Virus record (IMG/VR): IMGVR_UViG_3300027969_000055
Location: 1-64,000 of that record
Strand: one strand, 5' to 3'
DNA: 64,000 bases
Origin: a virus
The position numbers and the translations under genes are program-made. This document shows, one piece after another, positions 7,457 to 37,432 of this stretch; within the stretch, counting starts at the first letter, position 1, and every line of letters starts with the position of its first letter. The notes beneath the pieces were generated by a model. That model did no database searches, had not been told where the DNA came from, and saw only the letters and a program-made list of their open reading frames with translations.

Positions 7457-8401
7457 TTGAATATTCTTAATTTTAATGACTTTTTACTGCTTGAGGCTAG
7501 CTTATCTCAGCATGCTGATAAAAGAGTAGAACAACGTATTAAAGACAGTTTAAAGGACGGAACGGTCATTGACTTTCCAGCGGCTGCAAGAAAGAAAATT
7601 TCATTAACTGGCAGATCACTAGCTGATGTTTCAAATGAAGTAACTCAGCTAATCAAAGACGAGTTTATGCGACGTCTTACCAATAGAATAGAGCGGTCAG
7701 ACTTTCCAATTGGAAGAAATATAGTGGTTGTGTTATTAGATCCACAATTAAAATACGGTCATGATACTTTTCCAATATCAGTATCAGTAACATCAGAAAA
7801 TGAAGTAATTGATAAGAACACCGGAAAAAAGTCAATAATTAGAAAGACTTATACTGGCGAAAGATTATGTGTCTATATTGCAGATAATGTAGTGACTACG
7901 ATTAAAGTATTACCTGCAGATTATACAGATATTGATATTGAAAAGGACTCTGACAAGCATTTTGTTACTAAGAAGCTGGAGGTTAAAACCAGTACTGTAT
8001 TGTCAGGCGGTTCTGACTATATTATTGAATTGGATAAAACTGGGGAAATTAAACCTCACACAGGTCAAATACATTCAGGCCACGGTATTGTTACTGAAAA
8101 GGAATTTGCATTAACTCCAGGCAGACGTATTAAAGTAATTGTGCCATTTATTGATAAGGTTAATTTAACTAACGCTGAAATAATTTCAGTAGTTAATAGA
8201 GAATCTGCTAGAACTGATAGATTTATTAAAGTTGATGTTGTTTTAGAAGACGGCAGAAAAGTTCCTAAAACGTTAAGACCTGGAGATCAAATTGCACTAC
8301 CTGTTGGCCCAGATGGTGAATGGCAAAACTGTCAAGTGGCAGATAGTCTTTTTGTAGATTACGCAAATCGCGGAGGATCATTTTCACTTAAATATAAATA
8401 A
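7457..8401 (+). CDS. hypothetical protein (putative internal head protein)
   Basis: TTG start after ATAAATAA 7429; NILNFNDFLLLE then SQHADKRVEQRI. Confidence 0.7.
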   Translation: MNILNFNDFLLLEASLSQHADKRVEQRIKDSLKDGTVIDFPAAARKKISLTGRSLADVSNEVTQLIKDEFMRRLTNRIERSDFPIGRNIVVVLLDPQLKYGHDTFPISVSVTSENEVIDKNTGKKSIIRKTYTGERLCVYIADNVVTTIKVLPADYTDIDIEKDSDKHFVTKKLEVKTSTVLSGGSDYIIELDKTGEIKPHTGQIHSGHGIVTEKEFALTPGRRIKVIVPFIDKVNLTNAEIISVVNRESARTDRFIKVDVVLEDGRKVPKTLRPGDQIALPVGPDGEWQNCQVADSLFVDYANRGGSFSLKYK

Positions 8402-8444: not shown

Positions 8445-10007
8445 ATGAGTAGAATTATTAAATCATATCCAGAGTTTTTGGCTGAAAACTTGAACCAAAA
8501 CGAAGGTCTTAGGGATATTGCAAAAAAAGCAGTTGGCTCAATTAAAAAATTCTTTGGAAATGGTGCAAACTATTTAAGTGCATTGGCTGCCCAAATTAGT
8601 GGAAAGCAGTCAAATGATGGTGCGGATGGTACAATTCCATATGGTGTAACAATATATCCAGCAGCCTCTGATTTACAAAAAGTTGGAGCAGATACTAGCT
8701 ATTCCCCAGAAGAAATTGATGAAAATTTAGTAGATGAAGAAGCGGTTCCGTTGGAAGCTGGCGAAAGCATTGGCGGAGTTAGAAATGTTGACTATGACGG
8801 TTTAATGAGAATTGTTAAACGAATTGCAAACAATCCAGATAAAGGAGAAGAAGCACCACTCATGATTTGGGGAGCTCCAGGTATTGGTAAAACTGCAATT
8901 GTTAAACAGGTTCAAAAAATGCTAGGAGGTAGAATGATTGATGTTCAATTAACTACTTATGCACCAGAAGATTTCTTTTTACCAGTAGTTGATCCAGCAA
9001 CTAATGATAATATAATGAGCCGTAGAGCTTCAAGGGTTCCACAAAAATGGTTACCTGTATATAACGAAAGCGAAGGTGAAGAAGGAAATGCAAAAGCAAA
9101 TGGTCCAGATGGAATGGGCGGAATGATATTTATGGATGAGTTATCTAGAGCGTCTGAAGCAATTAGAAATATTGCCCTAAAATTTGTATTAGACAGAGAA
9201 TTAGATGGAGGTTGGAAATTAGGAAGCAAATGGACAATATTTGCAGCATCTAACCGTCAAGAAGATGATTTAACAAATTCTCAAGATTTTGGTACTGCCT
9301 TAGGTAACCGTTTTCAACAAGTAAACTATGTTCCTGATACTAAAACTTATGGAAAATATGCATCAGCCCAAACTGACTCAAGCGGAGTTAATACATTTGA
9401 TCCACTTATTATATCGTTCTTACAATGGTCTAAAGGTAAAGAATTTTTTCATAAAATGGATTCAAGAGCAGTTGCATTTCCTAGTCCAAGATCTTGGGAA
9501 AAGGCTGCAATTGCTTGGAAAAATTTAAAGAAAGAAGCAGAGGCCGAAGGTTATCAATTAACTGATAAAATGATTGAAGATGAAGCTCTAGCACCAAATG
9601 TTGGAACTGAGGCAGCTACTGCATTTATTGCATACTATCTGTTATCTAAGAAAATTGACCTAAAGAATCTTTATAAAGTTTATACTGAGCCAGATAATGC
9701 ACCACTTCCATCAAAAACAAGAAATGATGATTATGAATTGGACGTTGCATATATTCTAGCTTCAGCAGTTGCATATGAGCACAGAGGTAAAAAATTAACC
9801 AATACTGAAATTGAAAATGTAGCTAAATACGCAATTCGAATTAATAATCCAACGGTTGCAATGCAGATAATGGGTGCACTAATTGAAATTCACCCATACT
9901 TAAAGACTGCTGGTACTCCAGAATTTGAAGTGTATCGTATTGCAATGAGACCGTTTTTAGCAGCATATCCAGGTTCAGCAAAGGATATTCAAAATTTAGA
10001 AAACTAA
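8445..10007 (+). CDS. MoxR-like AAA+ ATPase with N-terminal extension
   Basis: Walker A GAPGIGKT, Walker B MIFMDE, AASNR, ALGNRF, SPRSWE. Confidence 0.85.
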   Translation: MSRIIKSYPEFLAENLNQNEGLRDIAKKAVGSIKKFFGNGANYLSALAAQISGKQSNDGADGTIPYGVTIYPAASDLQKVGADTSYSPEEIDENLVDEEAVPLEAGESIGGVRNVDYDGLMRIVKRIANNPDKGEEAPLMIWGAPGIGKTAIVKQVQKMLGGRMIDVQLTTYAPEDFFLPVVDPATNDNIMSRRASRVPQKWLPVYNESEGEEGNAKANGPDGMGGMIFMDELSRASEAIRNIALKFVLDRELDGGWKLGSKWTIFAASNRQEDDLTNSQDFGTALGNRFQQVNYVPDTKTYGKYASAQTDSSGVNTFDPLIISFLQWSKGKEFFHKMDSRAVAFPSPRSWEKAAIAWKNLKKEAEAEGYQLTDKMIEDEALAPNVGTEAATAFIAYYLLSKKIDLKNLYKVYTEPDNAPLPSKTRNDDYELDVAYILASAVAYEHRGKKLTNTEIENVAKYAIRINNPTVAMQIMGALIEIHPYLKTAGTPEFEVYRIAMRPFLAAYPGSAKDIQNLEN

Positions 10008-10008
10008 A

Positions 10009-10773
10009 ATGAAGCAATTATTGGATTGGAATGAATATCATAAGTATGCAGATTTTACAAAGTCTGACTTGATACTTGAGGCAGAGGAATCTGATCCAGT
10101 ATTAAAGAAGGTAAAAATAAAAGTAGACTATGCAATTAGAAAAGTTGCAATTAATTATAAATTCTTTGCCGATCTTACTTATAAATTAAGAATTATCTAT
10201 ACTAGACAGGTTAAAACAGCTGCAGTTGATGGAACAAATATGTTTATTAATCCAGAATTTTTTGAACCCTTAACCGAAGATCAAATTGTATTTATTGTAT
10301 GCCATGAAGTTATGCACTGTGCACTATTTCATTTTGCACGTATTCAAGGTAGAGACGGATATCGTTGGAATATTGCTGGTGACTATGAAATAAACTGGTT
10401 ACTGTCGAAAGATGGAATTCTATCGTATGACGAGATTAAGAATACTTTACGAGGTATGATTGAAAAATCCTATGCTGGTAAAAATGCTGAGCAGTTATAC
10501 GAAGATCCAGAAATGATAATGCCTCCAAAGGAAGAAGATGCAGAACAGGACACTACGCCTGGTGGTCCAGAAGACGGTGATCCTCCTCCGGGCGGTGGAG
10601 GCGGTGGAGGTAAAAAACCCAAAGAGGGCTTATTTCCTGGCAATATTATATACGACAAATCTAGCGGATCTTATGGTAAAGTTAATTCAATTGATAAAAC
10701 CACTGGTGAAGTTGATTTTTCACCATTAAGTAAACAAGAAGCTGAAATTGAATTGAAAAAACTTAAAGCTTAA
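10009..10773 (+). CDS. putative zinc metallopeptidase (DUF2201 N-terminal-like)
   Basis: TAAVDG..FINPEFF, HEVMH (HExxH), WNIAGDYEIN, AEQLYE. Confidence 0.8.
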   Translation: MKQLLDWNEYHKYADFTKSDLILEAEESDPVLKKVKIKVDYAIRKVAINYKFFADLTYKLRIIYTRQVKTAAVDGTNMFINPEFFEPLTEDQIVFIVCHEVMHCALFHFARIQGRDGYRWNIAGDYEINWLLSKDGILSYDEIKNTLRGMIEKSYAGKNAEQLYEDPEMIMPPKEEDAEQDTTPGGPEDGDPPPGGGGGGGKKPKEGLFPGNIIYDKSSGSYGKVNSIDKTTGEVDFSPLSKQEAEIELKKLKA

Positions 10774-10777
10774 TAAT

Positions 10778-11917
10778 ATGAAAACAAACTTATCTAATAT
10801 AGTTAAATTAGTAAATCCTAATGGTGCAAAAGGCGGAGGCAAAGGAGAAAGTGGAGAAGAGTCAACTGATAAGGGTATTGAAACTAAGACCTTAGAGAAA
10901 CCTGAAGAATTAGGCGGAGGTACTGGAGGAGAAGAAGAGGAAGAAGGAGAAGAGGGCCAAAAAGGAGAAGGTTCTGGAAAAGGTAAAGGTAAACCAGGAA
11001 AAGAAAAAGGAATGGGCTCAGGCGAAGGCTCATCTGAAGGAGATGGACCGATGGTAGACACAGATGATATTAATAATATTGACTCAAATAAGACGACTGT
11101 TGTTCGAAATGATGTACGGACAGGAAAGAGTCAAGGTAAAGTAGTTGGAAGAGGAACTGGCGAAGTTATTTCACCAGCTGAAGGTAGCCGTATTGCTAAA
11201 TCAGAAGGATATGATGAGCGCAGTCCACGCACGGAAGAGGAATGGAAGAAGGATGCAAGAACCTCTGCTCAAACAAATCTTACTAAACGAACCAAAAAAA
11301 GCGGTAGCGGAGAAGGAGCAATATATCAAAGAATTATGGAGCTTACTGATCCAATTGTAGATTGGAGAGCTGAATTACGCCGATTTATAGGTAAGCTTGC
11401 AAGTTCATCAGATTTTAAATTTCCAGCAAGAAGATCAATTGGGTCAGGCGATTACCGATATGGTATTAAATCCAAAAATAATGCTCTGGAAAATGGAGTA
11501 GTTGCAATTGACGTAAGCGGATCAATTGCCTCAGCTTTCCCAGAACTATTAGCTGAAGTAGTTGGAATTGCAAGCGCAAAGAAAATAAAGGAAATATCAG
11601 TTTTACCATGGAATGATAGAGTAGTTACTCCTGTAATATTTAAGAATTTTAAAAAACCAACGCCAGTTGATTTTGAAAAGGTTTCAACGGGTGGAGGGTC
11701 AAACGGAATGCCAGATGTTATGCGCTGGATTCAGAATAATGTAAAAGATCGCCCAGAATTTGTAGTTATCATAACTGATGGATATATTCCAACTCTACCG
11801 ACTGCTCCTAAATGGGGTAGGAAAACTATTTGGCTAATATTTGATAATAGCTCATTTGATGTACCGGCAGGTTGGGGTCAAGTTATTCACGCAAAAGGCG
11901 ATGACCGCTATAAATAA
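10778..11917 (+). CDS. VWA-domain protein (DUF2201 C-terminal-like) with Gly/Glu-rich linker
   Basis: VDWRAELRRF, MIDAS DVSGS, GGGS, IITDGY. Confidence 0.8.
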   Translation: MKTNLSNIVKLVNPNGAKGGGKGESGEESTDKGIETKTLEKPEELGGGTGGEEEEEGEEGQKGEGSGKGKGKPGKEKGMGSGEGSSEGDGPMVDTDDINNIDSNKTTVVRNDVRTGKSQGKVVGRGTGEVISPAEGSRIAKSEGYDERSPRTEEEWKKDARTSAQTNLTKRTKKSGSGEGAIYQRIMELTDPIVDWRAELRRFIGKLASSSDFKFPARRSIGSGDYRYGIKSKNNALENGVVAIDVSGSIASAFPELLAEVVGIASAKKIKEISVLPWNDRVVTPVIFKNFKKPTPVDFEKVSTGGGSNGMPDVMRWIQNNVKDRPEFVVIITDGYIPTLPTAPKWGRKTIWLIFDNSSFDVPAGWGQVIHAKGDDRYK

Positions 11918-11947
11918 AAACTTTTTAGCTAATCTTAGTTAAATAAT

Positions 11948-11969
11948 ACTGGAAACATAGAGCCTCGCT
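11948..11969. repeat. left arm of inverted repeat flanking ORF 12049-12798
   Basis: ACTGGAAACATAGAGCCTCGCT; reverse complement of 12811-12833 (13-bp plus 7-bp perfect blocks). Confidence 0.8.
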
Positions 11970-12048
11970 CTGTTTGTCTCGGGTTTACGAGCCCTTGAGT
12001 AATCAATAGAAGGTTACAATGAGATAAGCATAAAATAACATAACTCTT

Positions 12049-12798
12049 ATGTACCAACAAAACATCACAACTAGTGGGTCTACTGCAGTTTACACAAGCT
12101 TTAGTAATCCACAACCATCTGCAACAATCACAAAAGGCAGAGGACGACTAAAAACCTACGGGTCAAATGTCTATTTAAAAGACGGTTCAAATTTCGAAAT
12201 TGAACTCTACAATCCAAAAACAACATCAGTATTAGCAAAAATCTGGATCAATGGTCAAGTAATATCGGCGGCCGGCGGTATTGTGCTAAGGCCGGGCCAA
12301 CGGGTCTTTCTTGAAAGATTCATTGATGTTACTAAAAAATTCAAGTTTACAACGTATGAGGTTGATGACTCTAGCCAAACCAAATTAGCAATTGCTAATA
12401 ATGGTAAGATTGAAGTTCTGTTCTATGATGAGTATGTTTCAAACACATCTTCAGTAATGCTTTACGGTCATACTATTACAACAAATTACTATAATCGACC
12501 TAGCACTTTAACTGTTGGCGGAAGCGCTGGAACTATTAATTGCAGCTCAAGTCTATCATCTAATTCAATTGAGACAGGTATTGTTGAAAAAGGTGGAAAT
12601 TCTAAACAGCGATTTTCTAATACCTATGGTAATTTTAACTCATGGACTTGTTCAACAAGTGTCTGGCAAATTCTACCAGAAAGTAAAAAACCCGTTGAAA
12701 TGGGAGAAATTCGCTCTTATTGCACCGGCTGTGGAACCCGCCATAAAAAAGCAACTTGGAAATTCTGCCCTAATTGCGGAATTCCAGTAACTGAATAA
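12049..12798 (+). CDS. hypothetical protein with beta-sandwich-like core and C-terminal zinc ribbon
   Basis: FEIELYNP...IVLRPGQRVFLERF; CTGC...WKFCPNCG. Confidence 0.75.
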   Translation: MYQQNITTSGSTAVYTSFSNPQPSATITKGRGRLKTYGSNVYLKDGSNFEIELYNPKTTSVLAKIWINGQVISAAGGIVLRPGQRVFLERFIDVTKKFKFTTYEVDDSSQTKLAIANNGKIEVLFYDEYVSNTSSVMLYGHTITTNYYNRPSTLTVGGSAGTINCSSSLSSNSIETGIVEKGGNSKQRFSNTYGNFNSWTCSTSVWQILPESKKPVEMGEIRSYCTGCGTRHKKATWKFCPNCGIPVTE

Positions 12799-12810
12799 CA
12801 ATTAGTCCTA

Positions 12811-12833
12811 AGCGAGGCTCTATTTGTTCCAGT
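12811..12833. repeat. right arm of inverted repeat flanking ORF 12049-12798
   Basis: AGCGAGGCTCTATTTGTTCCAGT. Confidence 0.8.
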
Positions 12834-12867
12834 TTGCAAGATAAATAAACTCAAATTATTTAATAAA

Positions 12868-13137
12868 ATGGAAACAAGTCACAGTAAAATTTTAAGCTTT
12901 GAAGAGTTTACTCAATCAAATAGCAATCCGGAAATGGGAATTGAACCAACAATGCAAGATTCACCAGAAATGGCAGAATTACCATTAGGTAATGATAATG
13001 AACCAGCACCAGCGGAAGCTCCTGAAACTGGAGATACTGATCATGCTCTTTCTACTAATATGATGGCCGATACTGAGCCTAATATGGAAGTTGAACCAAG
13101 TGAAAAAGAAGCTGGCGCAGAAGACGCTACTCTTTAA
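12868..13137 (+). CDS. acidic disordered protein (putative internal head protein)
   Basis: KILSFEEF near N-terminus; ATAAATAA at 12841. Confidence 0.65.
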   Translation: METSHSKILSFEEFTQSNSNPEMGIEPTMQDSPEMAELPLGNDNEPAPAEAPETGDTDHALSTNMMADTEPNMEVEPSEKEAGAEDATL

Positions 13138-13161
13138 TTAAAAAAAGCAAGTTCACGCATA

Positions 13162-13557
13162 ATGAGTACTCCCAGAAATCGAGGCACGCAAGAGGTTGAT
13201 TCAATGATGAATGATATTCTTGATGCCTTAGACATTATTAAAGCCAAGTTGCCAAATGGTGAACTTAAAGTAATACAAGAAAGGATCGAAAATATTGAAT
13301 CGTCTCAGGGCGATATGAAAGAAGATCTACGCAATATCCGAAAGCAGTTGCTTGATCCAGAAGATGGAATCATTGTTCGAGTAAATAAAAACACTGAATT
13401 TCGTAAACGAAAAGAAGAAGATGCTCGAGATTGGGCTAAAATATTGGAAGAACATAGAGAGATAATGTCATGGAAAAGTACAGTAACCAAATTACTTTGG
13501 ATTATTGTTACTGCGGTTGTCGGTATAGCGGTTGGTTTAATATTTAGATCAGCATAA
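13162..13557 (+). CDS. coiled-coil protein with C-terminal transmembrane helix
   Basis: LLWIIVTAVVGIAVGLIF at C-terminus. Confidence 0.7.
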   Translation: MSTPRNRGTQEVDSMMNDILDALDIIKAKLPNGELKVIQERIENIESSQGDMKEDLRNIRKQLLDPEDGIIVRVNKNTEFRKRKEEDARDWAKILEEHREIMSWKSTVTKLLWIIVTAVVGIAVGLIFRSA

Positions 13558-13581
13558 AGATTCTTCATTTTTTTTTTTTTG

Positions 13582-13610
13582 AAAAGTCCCAATTAGTTGG
13601 GACTTTTTTT
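13582..13610 (+). terminator. intrinsic terminator
   Basis: AAAAGTCCCAA/TTGGGACTTTT stem plus T-run. Confidence 0.8.
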
Positions 13611-13653
13611 GTTTTATGTAGTATAATAATAACTATTAAACAAAAATATAATT

Positions 13654-13920
13654 ATGGCAACATTCGAAGTAGACGTAGACGTTTCTGATATTTTATATCA
13701 ATTATCGGATCGTGAAAAGAAAACAATGTACGAAGAGTTAAAACATGAGCTTGAAGAGGAAACCTCTGTATCAATTGAGGATCTGTTTGATAATGGAACC
13801 ACCTACATGGAAAGGGAAATAGGTCAAGCTCTAGCAAAATTATGGGAGTCTCGTAATATGCTTACAAACTCGCAACGTGCCCGTATTATTGAAATGACGA
13901 CTGAAAGTTTTGTTGAGTAA
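13654..13920 (+). CDS. hypothetical protein
   Basis: First ORF after AGTATAAT at 13620; tightly packed cluster. Confidence 0.65.
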   Translation: MATFEVDVDVSDILYQLSDREKKTMYEELKHELEEETSVSIEDLFDNGTTYMEREIGQALAKLWESRNMLTNSQRARIIEMTTESFVE

Positions 13921-14147
13921 TGAAAGGTCCAGTACTTCATCATATTAAATCAGTCTTTAGTCAAGAATCAAGTACCAATCCAGAAGATTGGGAAGAACTT
14001 CATGTTGAAATGACGTTTAATCCTGGAGCACAAGCTGGGTTCTTTACACTTAAAACAAAACAATGGGCAGTTGACTCAGTTGAGGACTTCGCTAAAATAT
14101 TTGAATCAATGCAAAAAATGGCAAACGAACATGAAACACTACTTTAA
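13920..14147 (+). CDS. hypothetical protein
   Basis: TAATG-coupled ORF. Confidence 0.65.
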   Translation: MKGPVLHHIKSVFSQESSTNPEDWEELHVEMTFNPGAQAGFFTLKTKQWAVDSVEDFAKIFESMQKMANEHETLL

Positions 14148-21995: not shown

Positions 21996-22782
21996 CATAT
22001 TAGTAATAGGCGAAGCATGTATTGACATATTTGAATACGGCAAATGTACCCGACTTAATCCTGAAGCCCCAACCCCAATCTTTCAGTCAGATCATATTGA
22101 AACAAATGGTGGAATGGCAAGTAATGTATATGAAAATATCTTGAGTATTGCTGGAATAAAGAATGGGCATTATGAAATTAATGTTGATTTTATAGGTCAA
22201 GCGAATGGAAAAATTACCAAACATCGATTCGTAGATATTAATTCAAATTATATTCTTTTACGAGTAGATAATGATGGGCCAGTTGAACCACTTAATATTG
22301 GTTCGCTTGATTCAGAAATTATATATCAAATTACATCAGCTGATATTGTGGTAGTTTCTGACTATAATAAAGGTTTCCTAACTGAAGAAACCTTAGAAAA
22401 GATTGCAAGACACTCTAAATTAAGTTTCATTGATACTAAAAAACCGTTAGGTTGGTGGGCTAATGATTTTAATTTCATTAAAATTAATAAAAAAGAGTTT
22501 GAGAATCCAGCACATGATAAGGACTTTATTGGCAGTAGTATGGATAAGCTAATTGTTACACTTGGAGCAGATGGAGCCAAATGGAACGGAACTCAAGTAT
22601 ATCCACTTAACCCAACTGAAGTAAAGGACGTATCTGGTGCTGGCGATAGCTTTATTGCCGGCTTGGTGGTTGAATACCTAAAAAGTAATGATATTATCCA
22701 AGCAATTCAATTTGCAAATGTTTGTGCAGGCATAGCGGTTTCACAAAAGGGTGTAGTTTCAGTAGAGTGTCCAGATAAATAA
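21988..22782 (+). CDS. RfaE domain I-like PfkB kinase (HldA-like)
   Basis: RLNPEAPTP, GGMASNV, VSDYNKG, DVSGAGDSF. Confidence 0.85.
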   Translation: MNNILVIGEACIDIFEYGKCTRLNPEAPTPIFQSDHIETNGGMASNVYENILSIAGIKNGHYEINVDFIGQANGKITKHRFVDINSNYILLRVDNDGPVEPLNIGSLDSEIIYQITSADIVVVSDYNKGFLTEETLEKIARHSKLSFIDTKKPLGWWANDFNFIKINKKEFENPAHDKDFIGSSMDKLIVTLGADGAKWNGTQVYPLNPTEVKDVSGAGDSFIAGLVVEYLKSNDIIQAIQFANVCAGIAVSQKGVVSVECPDK

Positions 22783-36961: not shown

Positions 36962-37432
36962 TTAACTAACGAAAGAATAATATACTCCTTCTATTTGATA
37001 AAAGTCCGATAAAAAGTCTGTAATTGTGGTACTTGCATAAATAGTATCGCCAAGTGGATGGCTGTCTCCGTTCTTATAGAATACAGATACGCCTCCATCA
37101 TACAGACACACTATTGAATCTAAGTTATAGTGCTTTATTGAACCTTTTGCCATGTTCTTAAATTCATCGTCTGTCACTTCAGTATCATGGTTAGTAACAA
37201 AGATACTTGGAAAACTACGTTTCATTCTGTAACCTGAACTTTCAATTGAATGTATCACTTGTAGAACGTAACTTAATTTACCGTATGAATCAAGGTCGGC
37301 TAAGACTTTATTATATTGATCTGGATCCGTAAAGTTGTAAACAACAAACGGTCGCTGGTTTTGCACACAATCTCTAACCAGGTTGTACCTGTTTCCATTG
37401 TATTCTCTGGTATGTCGTATTGATCTGCTCAT
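36962..37432 (-). CDS. hypothetical protein
   Basis: ORF after minus-strand ATAAATAA (37462-37469). Confidence 0.65.
   Translation of the reverse strand: MSRSIRHTREYNGNRYNLVRDCVQNQRPFVVYNFTDPDQYNKVLADLDSYGKLSYVLQVIHSIESSGYRMKRSFPSIFVTNHDTEVTDDEFKNMAKGSIKHYNLDSIVCLYDGGVSVFYKNGDSHPLGDTIYASTTITDFLSDFYQIEGVYYSFVS

Follow-up and report, generated by a model that had tools for sequence, protein, structure and literature searches.

Complementary arms around a zinc-ribbon gene of large phages covary among relatives and may close its mRNA end to end

We found that a single + strand gene in the window (the whole stretch of DNA analysed, 64,000 nt) is enclosed by an inverted repeat, the arms of which vary in sequence by subfamily among relatives while retaining their complementarity. 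We consider it probable that the two arms come together in a long-range RNA helix, kept by selection, that closes the + strand transcript of this zinc-ribbon gene. Since the arms are paired, with many different sequences, in most relatives, the two ends of the mRNA most likely pair with each other. The record that contains the window is that of a 116-kb linear large freshwater phage with tightly packed genes, mostly on the + strand. The features of the gene unit are given in Table 1.

Table 1. Features of the zinc-ribbon gene unit in the window
Feature	Position	Strand	Remarks
Promoter-like box	11918-11945	+	AAACTTTTT...AGTTAAATA; conserved; ends 2 nt ahead of left arm
Left arm of long-range helix	11948-11969	+	ACTGGAAACATAGAGCCTCGCT; at putative mRNA 5' end
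Alternative local hairpin	11953-11975	+	AAAC/GTTT and AGAGC/GCTCT, loop CTC; −8.9 kcal/mol
Three-helix leader	11972-12029	+	RNAalifold on MAFFT alignment of 32 loci
P1	11972-11980 with 12021-12029	+	leader helix
P2	11981-11984 with 11991-11994	+	leader helix
Joiner	11995-11999	+	TTGAG; leader
P3	11999-12003 with 12013-12017	+	leader helix
A-rich unpaired linker	12030-12048	+	P1 to start codon; 19 nt (about 16-35 nt in the 32 aligned loci)
ORF	12049-12798	+	249 aa; Ig-like beta sandwich and C-terminal zinc ribbon (predicted); phage-only family
Right arm of long-range helix	12811-12833	+	AGCGAGGCTCTATTTGTTCCAGT; begins 12 nt past stop codon
Box AGATAAATAAAC	12839-12850	+	promoter-like; precedes next gene (12868)

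The arms pair in a perfect block of 13 bp (11957-11969 with 12811-12823) and a perfect block of 7 bp (11948-11954 with 12827-12833), split by a 2×3 internal loop. Both the coordinates and the pairing are as described in an earlier, sequence-only reading of this DNA. The two arms are the sole such pair in the 64-kb window; the arm 13-mer has two sites there, both in the arms, and the 22-mer has one. We compared the 140 nt upstream of each of 85 window ORFs with the reverse complement of the 90 nt downstream, and ORF 12049-12798 had the highest flanking-repeat score (34; median, 15; 95th percentile, 21.8; runner-up, 30). The runner-up was the − strand gene 36962-37432, the flanking repeat of which is AT-rich and gapped and may be a shared terminator-like sequence.

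The predicted energy of the long-range arm duplex was −32.8 kcal/mol vs −8.9 kcal/mol for the alternative local hairpin. This local fold (AAAC-AT-AGAGC-CTC-GCTCT-GTTT) had been pointed out in the same reading and is real; it shares the left arm and also 4 nt of P1 (11972-11975). In the minimum-energy fold of 11948-12840 the arm helix closes the molecule, with a pair probability of ~1.0 over most of the helix, and P1-P2-P3 begins one unpaired nucleotide beyond it.

For comparison, we gathered 80 loci at 42-90% identity and a further 26 around a 34% relative, which covers 106 of the ~444 viral-contig relatives, and added six GenBank huge-phage loci and four MAG loci. The first set comprised 54 distinct loci, and 75 distinct loci in total were compared by perfect-run length. 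When each upstream flank was locally aligned with the reverse complement of its downstream flank, repeats came up at the matching relative place in ~40 loci of the first set. We then scored the length of perfect Watson-Crick runs between position-restricted windows (the leader 5' end, and the stop codon to +50). This measure was adopted because RNAduplex discriminates poorly on 50-nt AT-rich windows, on which the energies of only 32 of the 75 loci were under the 1% non-cognate level. Perfect runs of at least 12 bp occurred in 29 of the 75 loci vs none of 3,388 non-cognate left/right pairs, and runs of at least 10 bp in 51 loci vs 41 non-cognate pairs. At a threshold of at least 9 bp the numbers were 58 of 75 and 131 of 3,388, and some clades have helices of only 9-10 bp, lengths that the upper end of the non-cognate distribution also reaches. 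Judged by this comparison of sequences, the pairing of the arms is far beyond chance once the relatives are counted. No run of at least 9 bp was present in 17 of the 75 loci; the arm helix is therefore dispensable.

The positions of the arms are constrained. The left arm immediately precedes P1, and the distance from the stop codon to the start of the right arm is 6-26 nt in the 58 relatives whose run reaches 9 bp or more. Merging by shared 7-mers yielded 14 arm classes, one of which is spurious and another of which chains the distinct groups A, B and C. All four MAG loci have arms. In the six nearest relatives (88-90% amino acid identity) the arms are invariant (6/6), and these loci are therefore uninformative on covariation. 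Locus L121, a member of the window clade with 74% protein identity to the window, has one compensatory change from C-G to U-A relative to the window, and two further changes pair as G·U on the + strand only. Among internal single mismatches, a strict count across loci gave three G·U vs no A·C, and a loose count, which includes AT-rich extensions, gave 18 vs 6. These wobble changes are few in number and fit a + strand RNA. Arm covariation over a dozen or more arm classes backs the central inference of the earlier reading, pairing between the two flanks of the gene in the mRNA.

On the protein tree, the arm classes track clades with three exceptions. A clade of eight loci has no long-range arms; in the place of the left arm these loci carry a local hairpin (CTAGA-GGTT-TCTAG), and their stop codon is followed by an ordinary terminator. 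Locus L028 is nested in the arm class of the window and has lost the right-arm segment; its AGAGC/GCTCT stem was kept and the loop changed, so that the local fold persists after loss of its long-range partner. The loci L042 and L047 have class-E arms and leader (GGGGAGCC) on a protein nested in clade C (AGAGCCTGA arms). Class-E flanks on clade C ORFs imply that both untranslated flanks were exchanged together, which points to recombination. Local stems in the place of the left arm are found repeatedly, in groups A and C as well as in the armless clade, and local and long-range stems exchange for one another at this place. Taken together, the three exceptions are in keeping with a need for a paired RNA 5' end; they do not fit a DNA site.

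The sequence after the right arm differs between clades. The first set contains 40 loci with arms. In 17 of them the right arm is immediately followed by a separate terminator hairpin and T-run, and in 11 by a T-run with no other terminator within 75 nt. The remaining 12 form the clade of the window and have neither a terminator nor a T-run at this place; in the window itself the right arm is followed by TTTGCAAG, so that no U-run follows the GC-rich stem. In the second set, read by eye, a terminator follows the right arm in most loci.

The transcript leader between the left arm and the start codon is itself conserved. RNAalifold on the MAFFT alignment of 32 loci predicted 18 pairs, with compensatory changes in 17 of them. 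Leader cells were paired in 96.2% of cases vs 68% in shuffles and 37-46% when the partners were slid by 1-3 columns, and the covariation score was 0.85 vs 0.09-0.21. The GGGTT-TACG-AGCCC hairpin that had been noticed in the window lies at 11981-11994 and corresponds to P2. A covariance model built from the alignment (R1) detected the leader in 22 of 25 held-out sources, with three Lak loci missed, and in 22 of the 25 sources of the second set; in the 116-kb record it had one match. In one of the Lak loci (L088), P1 looks similar by eye. A search of Rfam 15 with 11700-13200 (E ≤10) gave only two chance snoRNA matches inside the ORF, and the same search with 20 relatives (E ≤0.1) gave no match. 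In the literature searched, supplements lying outside its scope, we found no published description of the arm or leader element. On the evidence of its alignment, the leader is a previously undescribed, strongly covarying motif on the gene of a virus-only protein.

The box at 11918-11945 (AAACTTT...AGTTAAATA) may act as a promoter. The earlier reading had put a promoter of the form AAACT (11918)...AGTTAAAT (11937) ahead of the left arm, and this box is indeed present and conserved in relatives. It is kept in the near relatives and in arm groups A and C, and is variant in the clade without long-range arms. In distant relatives, TTGACx-17-TATAAT-like boxes are found at its position. We infer that the transcript begins with the left arm, because the conserved box or the TATAAT-like boxes precede it. 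As a general promoter of this phage the box was ruled out, since it occurs as a single copy in the window. A scan of 11500-13700 for sigma-70 promoters and terminators gave counts at chance level, with nothing at the arms. Downstream of the right arm, the AGATAAATAAAC box is kept in group A and in part of the group C loci and may likewise be promoter-like. Within it, the AGATAAATA box at 12839-12847 has a second copy in the window at 22773-22781 and may be a promoter element of a small set of genes.

We propose that transcription would start just past the 11918-11945 box, so that the left arm would come first in the mRNA. Initially, the local hairpin could form. Once the right arm had been made, the much stronger 13+7 bp helix would close the whole mRNA and abut P1 of the leader. 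Because the helix would abut P1, the start codon, 19 nt downstream of P1, and the stop codon, 12 nt ahead of the right arm, would leave one junction. Such closure would protect both mRNA ends from 5'-end-dependent and 3' nucleases, and may also return terminating ribosomes to the start. By analogy, end protection is the role that we favour, possibly together with start-stop coupling. Where the transcript begins and ends, that the arms pair in vivo and what this does are all inferred from the comparisons above. Contigs of three RNA-labelled libraries, from relatives, cover 11806-12058 and 11896-12131 and cross the putative start, which points to transcripts running on from the upstream gene or to carried-over DNA. 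Overall, the coverage in relatives by these contigs (thin, and consisting of contigs only) spans 11806-12131, 11978-12215 and 12317-12441, with none over the right arm.

An RNase III processing stem was one of the readings put forward for the inverted repeat. The helix would form in read-through transcripts and be cut in both strands, excising a monocistronic mRNA with paired ends. This fits the 22-bp arms of the window clade, whose helix of 13+7 bp with an internal loop amounts to about two helical turns and is followed by no terminator, and the RNA-library contigs that span the putative start are in line with it. A 5'-3' UTR pairing that serves as an RNase III substrate has been described for icaR (PMC3868564). 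The processing stem fits poorly to most other clades, in which the helix has 9-14 bp and is thus below the length of a classical RNase III site; these clades also have their own promoter-like box and terminator, so that excision would be unnecessary. We therefore regard excision by RNase III as a fair rival for the window clade and, as an account of the arms, as rather unlikely. The left arm might instead switch between two states, the local hairpin, in which 4 nt of P1 are tied up, and the long-range helix, which leaves P1 free. Folding of the leader, and hence translation, would then depend on completion of the mRNA or on 3' trimming. The overlap of the local hairpin with P1 at 11972-11975, the recurrence of local stems at this position in groups A, C and the armless clade and the retention of the stem in L028 agree with such a two-state riboregulator. 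The conflict between the two folds is small, however, because the minimum-energy fold of the leader alone already has P1-P2-P3 together with the inner local stem; moreover, a hok-like version would call for a small toxin, which the product is not. We consider this switch unlikely.

Where a T-run directly follows the GC-rich right arm, the long-range helix could also be the stem of a split intrinsic terminator. This idea draws on the 11 first-set loci noted above and L103, in which the T-run after the arm is the only candidate terminator. In L064, L066, L071, L076 and L103 any local stem ending at the T-run has at most 4 bp, and an A-run lies ahead of the left arm in these T-run loci. The T-run may, on the other hand, do no more than lengthen the helix by pairing with this A-run. 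In addition, alternative local stems are present in L030 and L052, a T-run is missing from the window clade (TTTGC follows the arm), and a stem half made ~850 nt earlier would be kinetically unfavourable for termination. A split terminator is very unlikely to explain the arms as such. It is still doubtful that in the U-run clades without another hairpin the 5' end of the mRNA forms the upstream half of its own intrinsic terminator, with a loop of ~850 nt. If it did, termination and mRNA closure would be one event, the loop would contain the whole leader and ORF, and stop (6-26 nt) and start (~16-35 nt) would lie near one point, allowing ribosomes to return to the start. A DNA-level role, with the arms as recombinase sites of an invertible segment, terminal repeats of a mobile element or paired protein-binding sites, could account for a single gene bracketed by inverted repeats, for arms that change together and for the joint exchange of both flanks in L042 and L047. 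Against this, the gene has one orientation relative to the downstream p131/p88 in every locus where these were recognised, and the DNA contigs, at thin coverage, show no joints or strand switches. The earlier observation that no transposase or target-site duplication is visible holds: no duplication flanks the arms, Pfam assigns the ORF to no transposase family, no transposase fold was found and the downstream synteny is fixed. Among the seven ORFs near the arms, Pfam and PHROGs revealed no recombinase. The local hairpin that stands in for the repeat in the armless clade and in L028, and the wobble changes, which fit RNA, also speak against a DNA element. DNA inversion or transposon ends are unlikely, and a DNA-level element of any of these kinds is highly improbable.

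The preferred reading, closure of the mRNA by a long-range RNA helix, has parallels in bacteria. To our knowledge, intramolecular 5'-3' UTR pairing of the bacterial type is documented by a handful of single-gene experiments (hbs, icaR, hok) with little phylogenetic support. The mRNAs of hok/Sok and aapA/IsoA encode membrane toxins of fewer than 60 aa that are controlled by antisense RNA and activated by 3' trimming, with a 5'-3' pairing (fbi-tac). As in hok and aapA, the 5' end of the phage mRNA would pair with its 3' end and a local 5' structure competes. Unlike those toxins, the phage product is a soluble-looking protein of 249 aa with no sign of toxicity. The suggested analogy with type I toxins fails on this point, a protein with a beta sandwich and a zinc ribbon being no small toxic peptide. 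RNase III stems bracket genes in rRNA operons, where they process the rRNA precursors, and RNase III sites are found in T7 early mRNAs. In the window clade, the gene-flanking sequences similarly form a helix of ~20 bp with an internal loop, whereas the helices of most relatives are too short for classical recognition by RNase III and the units have their own promoter and terminator.

The closest parallel in architecture is the hbs mRNA of Bacillus subtilis. According to Braun, Durand and Condon (2017, PMC5737220), a 14-bp interaction between its 5' and 3' UTRs, just upstream of the terminator, limits cleavage by RNase Y and protects the mRNA ends, and was proven in vivo by compensatory mutations. 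As that report describes it, hbs shares with the phage unit the complementary 5' and 3' UTR stretches on one short mRNA (14 bp in hbs, 9-22 bp here) and a structured leader adjoining the pairing stretch. The right arm also precedes a terminator in the 17 of 40 first-set loci mentioned above, unlike in the 12 loci of the window clade. By the same account, hbs differs in that its interaction acts on an RNase Y site and its pairing stretch comes after two hairpins, whereas the phage arms are known from comparison of sequences only and the 5' arm lies at the putative extreme 5' end. The hosts differ as well, Bacillus there and probably Bacteroidota-type bacteria here. In icaR of Staphylococcus aureus, a 3' motif covers the Shine-Dalgarno region, keeps translation down and brings in RNase III (Ruiz de los Mozos et al. 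2013, PMC3868564). Compared with the pairing reported there, the phage 5' arm is ~80-100 nt upstream of the start codon and clear of the initiation region. With more than 1,700 protein clusters in large and huge phages, Lak megaphages among them, the zinc-ribbon family provides a natural series of compensatory mutations. Its arm classes number a dozen or more, one clade has a local hairpin in place of the helix and one locus is a natural deletion, which makes the role of end-to-end closure of an mRNA directly testable.

The genes downstream of the ORF are syntenic across related clades, and only the upstream neighbour varies; the zinc-ribbon gene is therefore not mobile on its own. This neighbour is a VWA gene in the window, a homolog of ORF 7457-8401 in L008, L011 and L013, and a tRNA array in L021. 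The module of AAA/MoxR-like ATPase, DUF2201 metallopeptidase and VWA-like genes (8445-11917) is missing from L008, L011 and L013, in which the homolog of ORF 7457-8401 stands directly ahead of the zinc-ribbon gene unit. In L021, a 253-kb phage contig, five tRNA genes (Cys, His, Leu, Arg, Arg; 1981-2373) end ~30 nt before the left arm. The break in synteny is immediately upstream of the conserved box that begins at 11918.

The product of the gene belongs to an unnamed family. Pfam gave only sub-threshold zinc-ribbon matches on ORF 12049-12798 (residues 222-248), a PHROGs search with the ORF gave no match, and a nucleotide search of phage DNA with 10000-14000 gave none either. AlphaFold (mean pLDDT 67) predicted a beta sandwich (residues 24-128 and 173-210), a disordered insert and a C-terminal zinc ribbon; none of the predicted helices of four or more residues is longer than six. 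The family had 1,785 matches at E ≤0.001 among 90% clusters, all of them unnamed and many on contigs of 100-320 kb, and includes Prevotella Lak megaphages and other huge phages. On the cellular side it was found in four of 185,579 species genomes, in all four on MAG contigs. The Lak/Prevotella records and two MAG labels provide the link to Bacteroidota-type bacteria, which are probably the hosts of the phage. For this virus-only protein, the leader motif is a handle on regulation.

Foldseek of the predicted protein against the PDB found nothing at E ≤0.001, a wide VIA-align search returned generic Ig-like sandwiches only (Z ≤7), and the protein atlas contained 'hypothetical protein' clusters only. 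Fold matches in BFVD, with E values from 1e-9 to 1e-4, were to uncharacterised proteins of giant viruses, iridoviruses (ICP-18), nudiviruses, baculoviruses and nimaviruses (wsv390). The predicted fold suggests that the zinc-ribbon family may be common to phages and eukaryotic large DNA viruses. In the Lak megaphage loci L088, L089 and L093, the homologous ORF has an in-frame TAG and is open if TAG is read through; their flanks are extremely AT-rich, and model R1 gave no score there. In relatives of the window that are otherwise 90-100% identical to it, three patches (12231-12280, 12431-12480 and 12531-12580) have 66-74% identity, and the latter two fall in the predicted disordered insert (residues 132-171).
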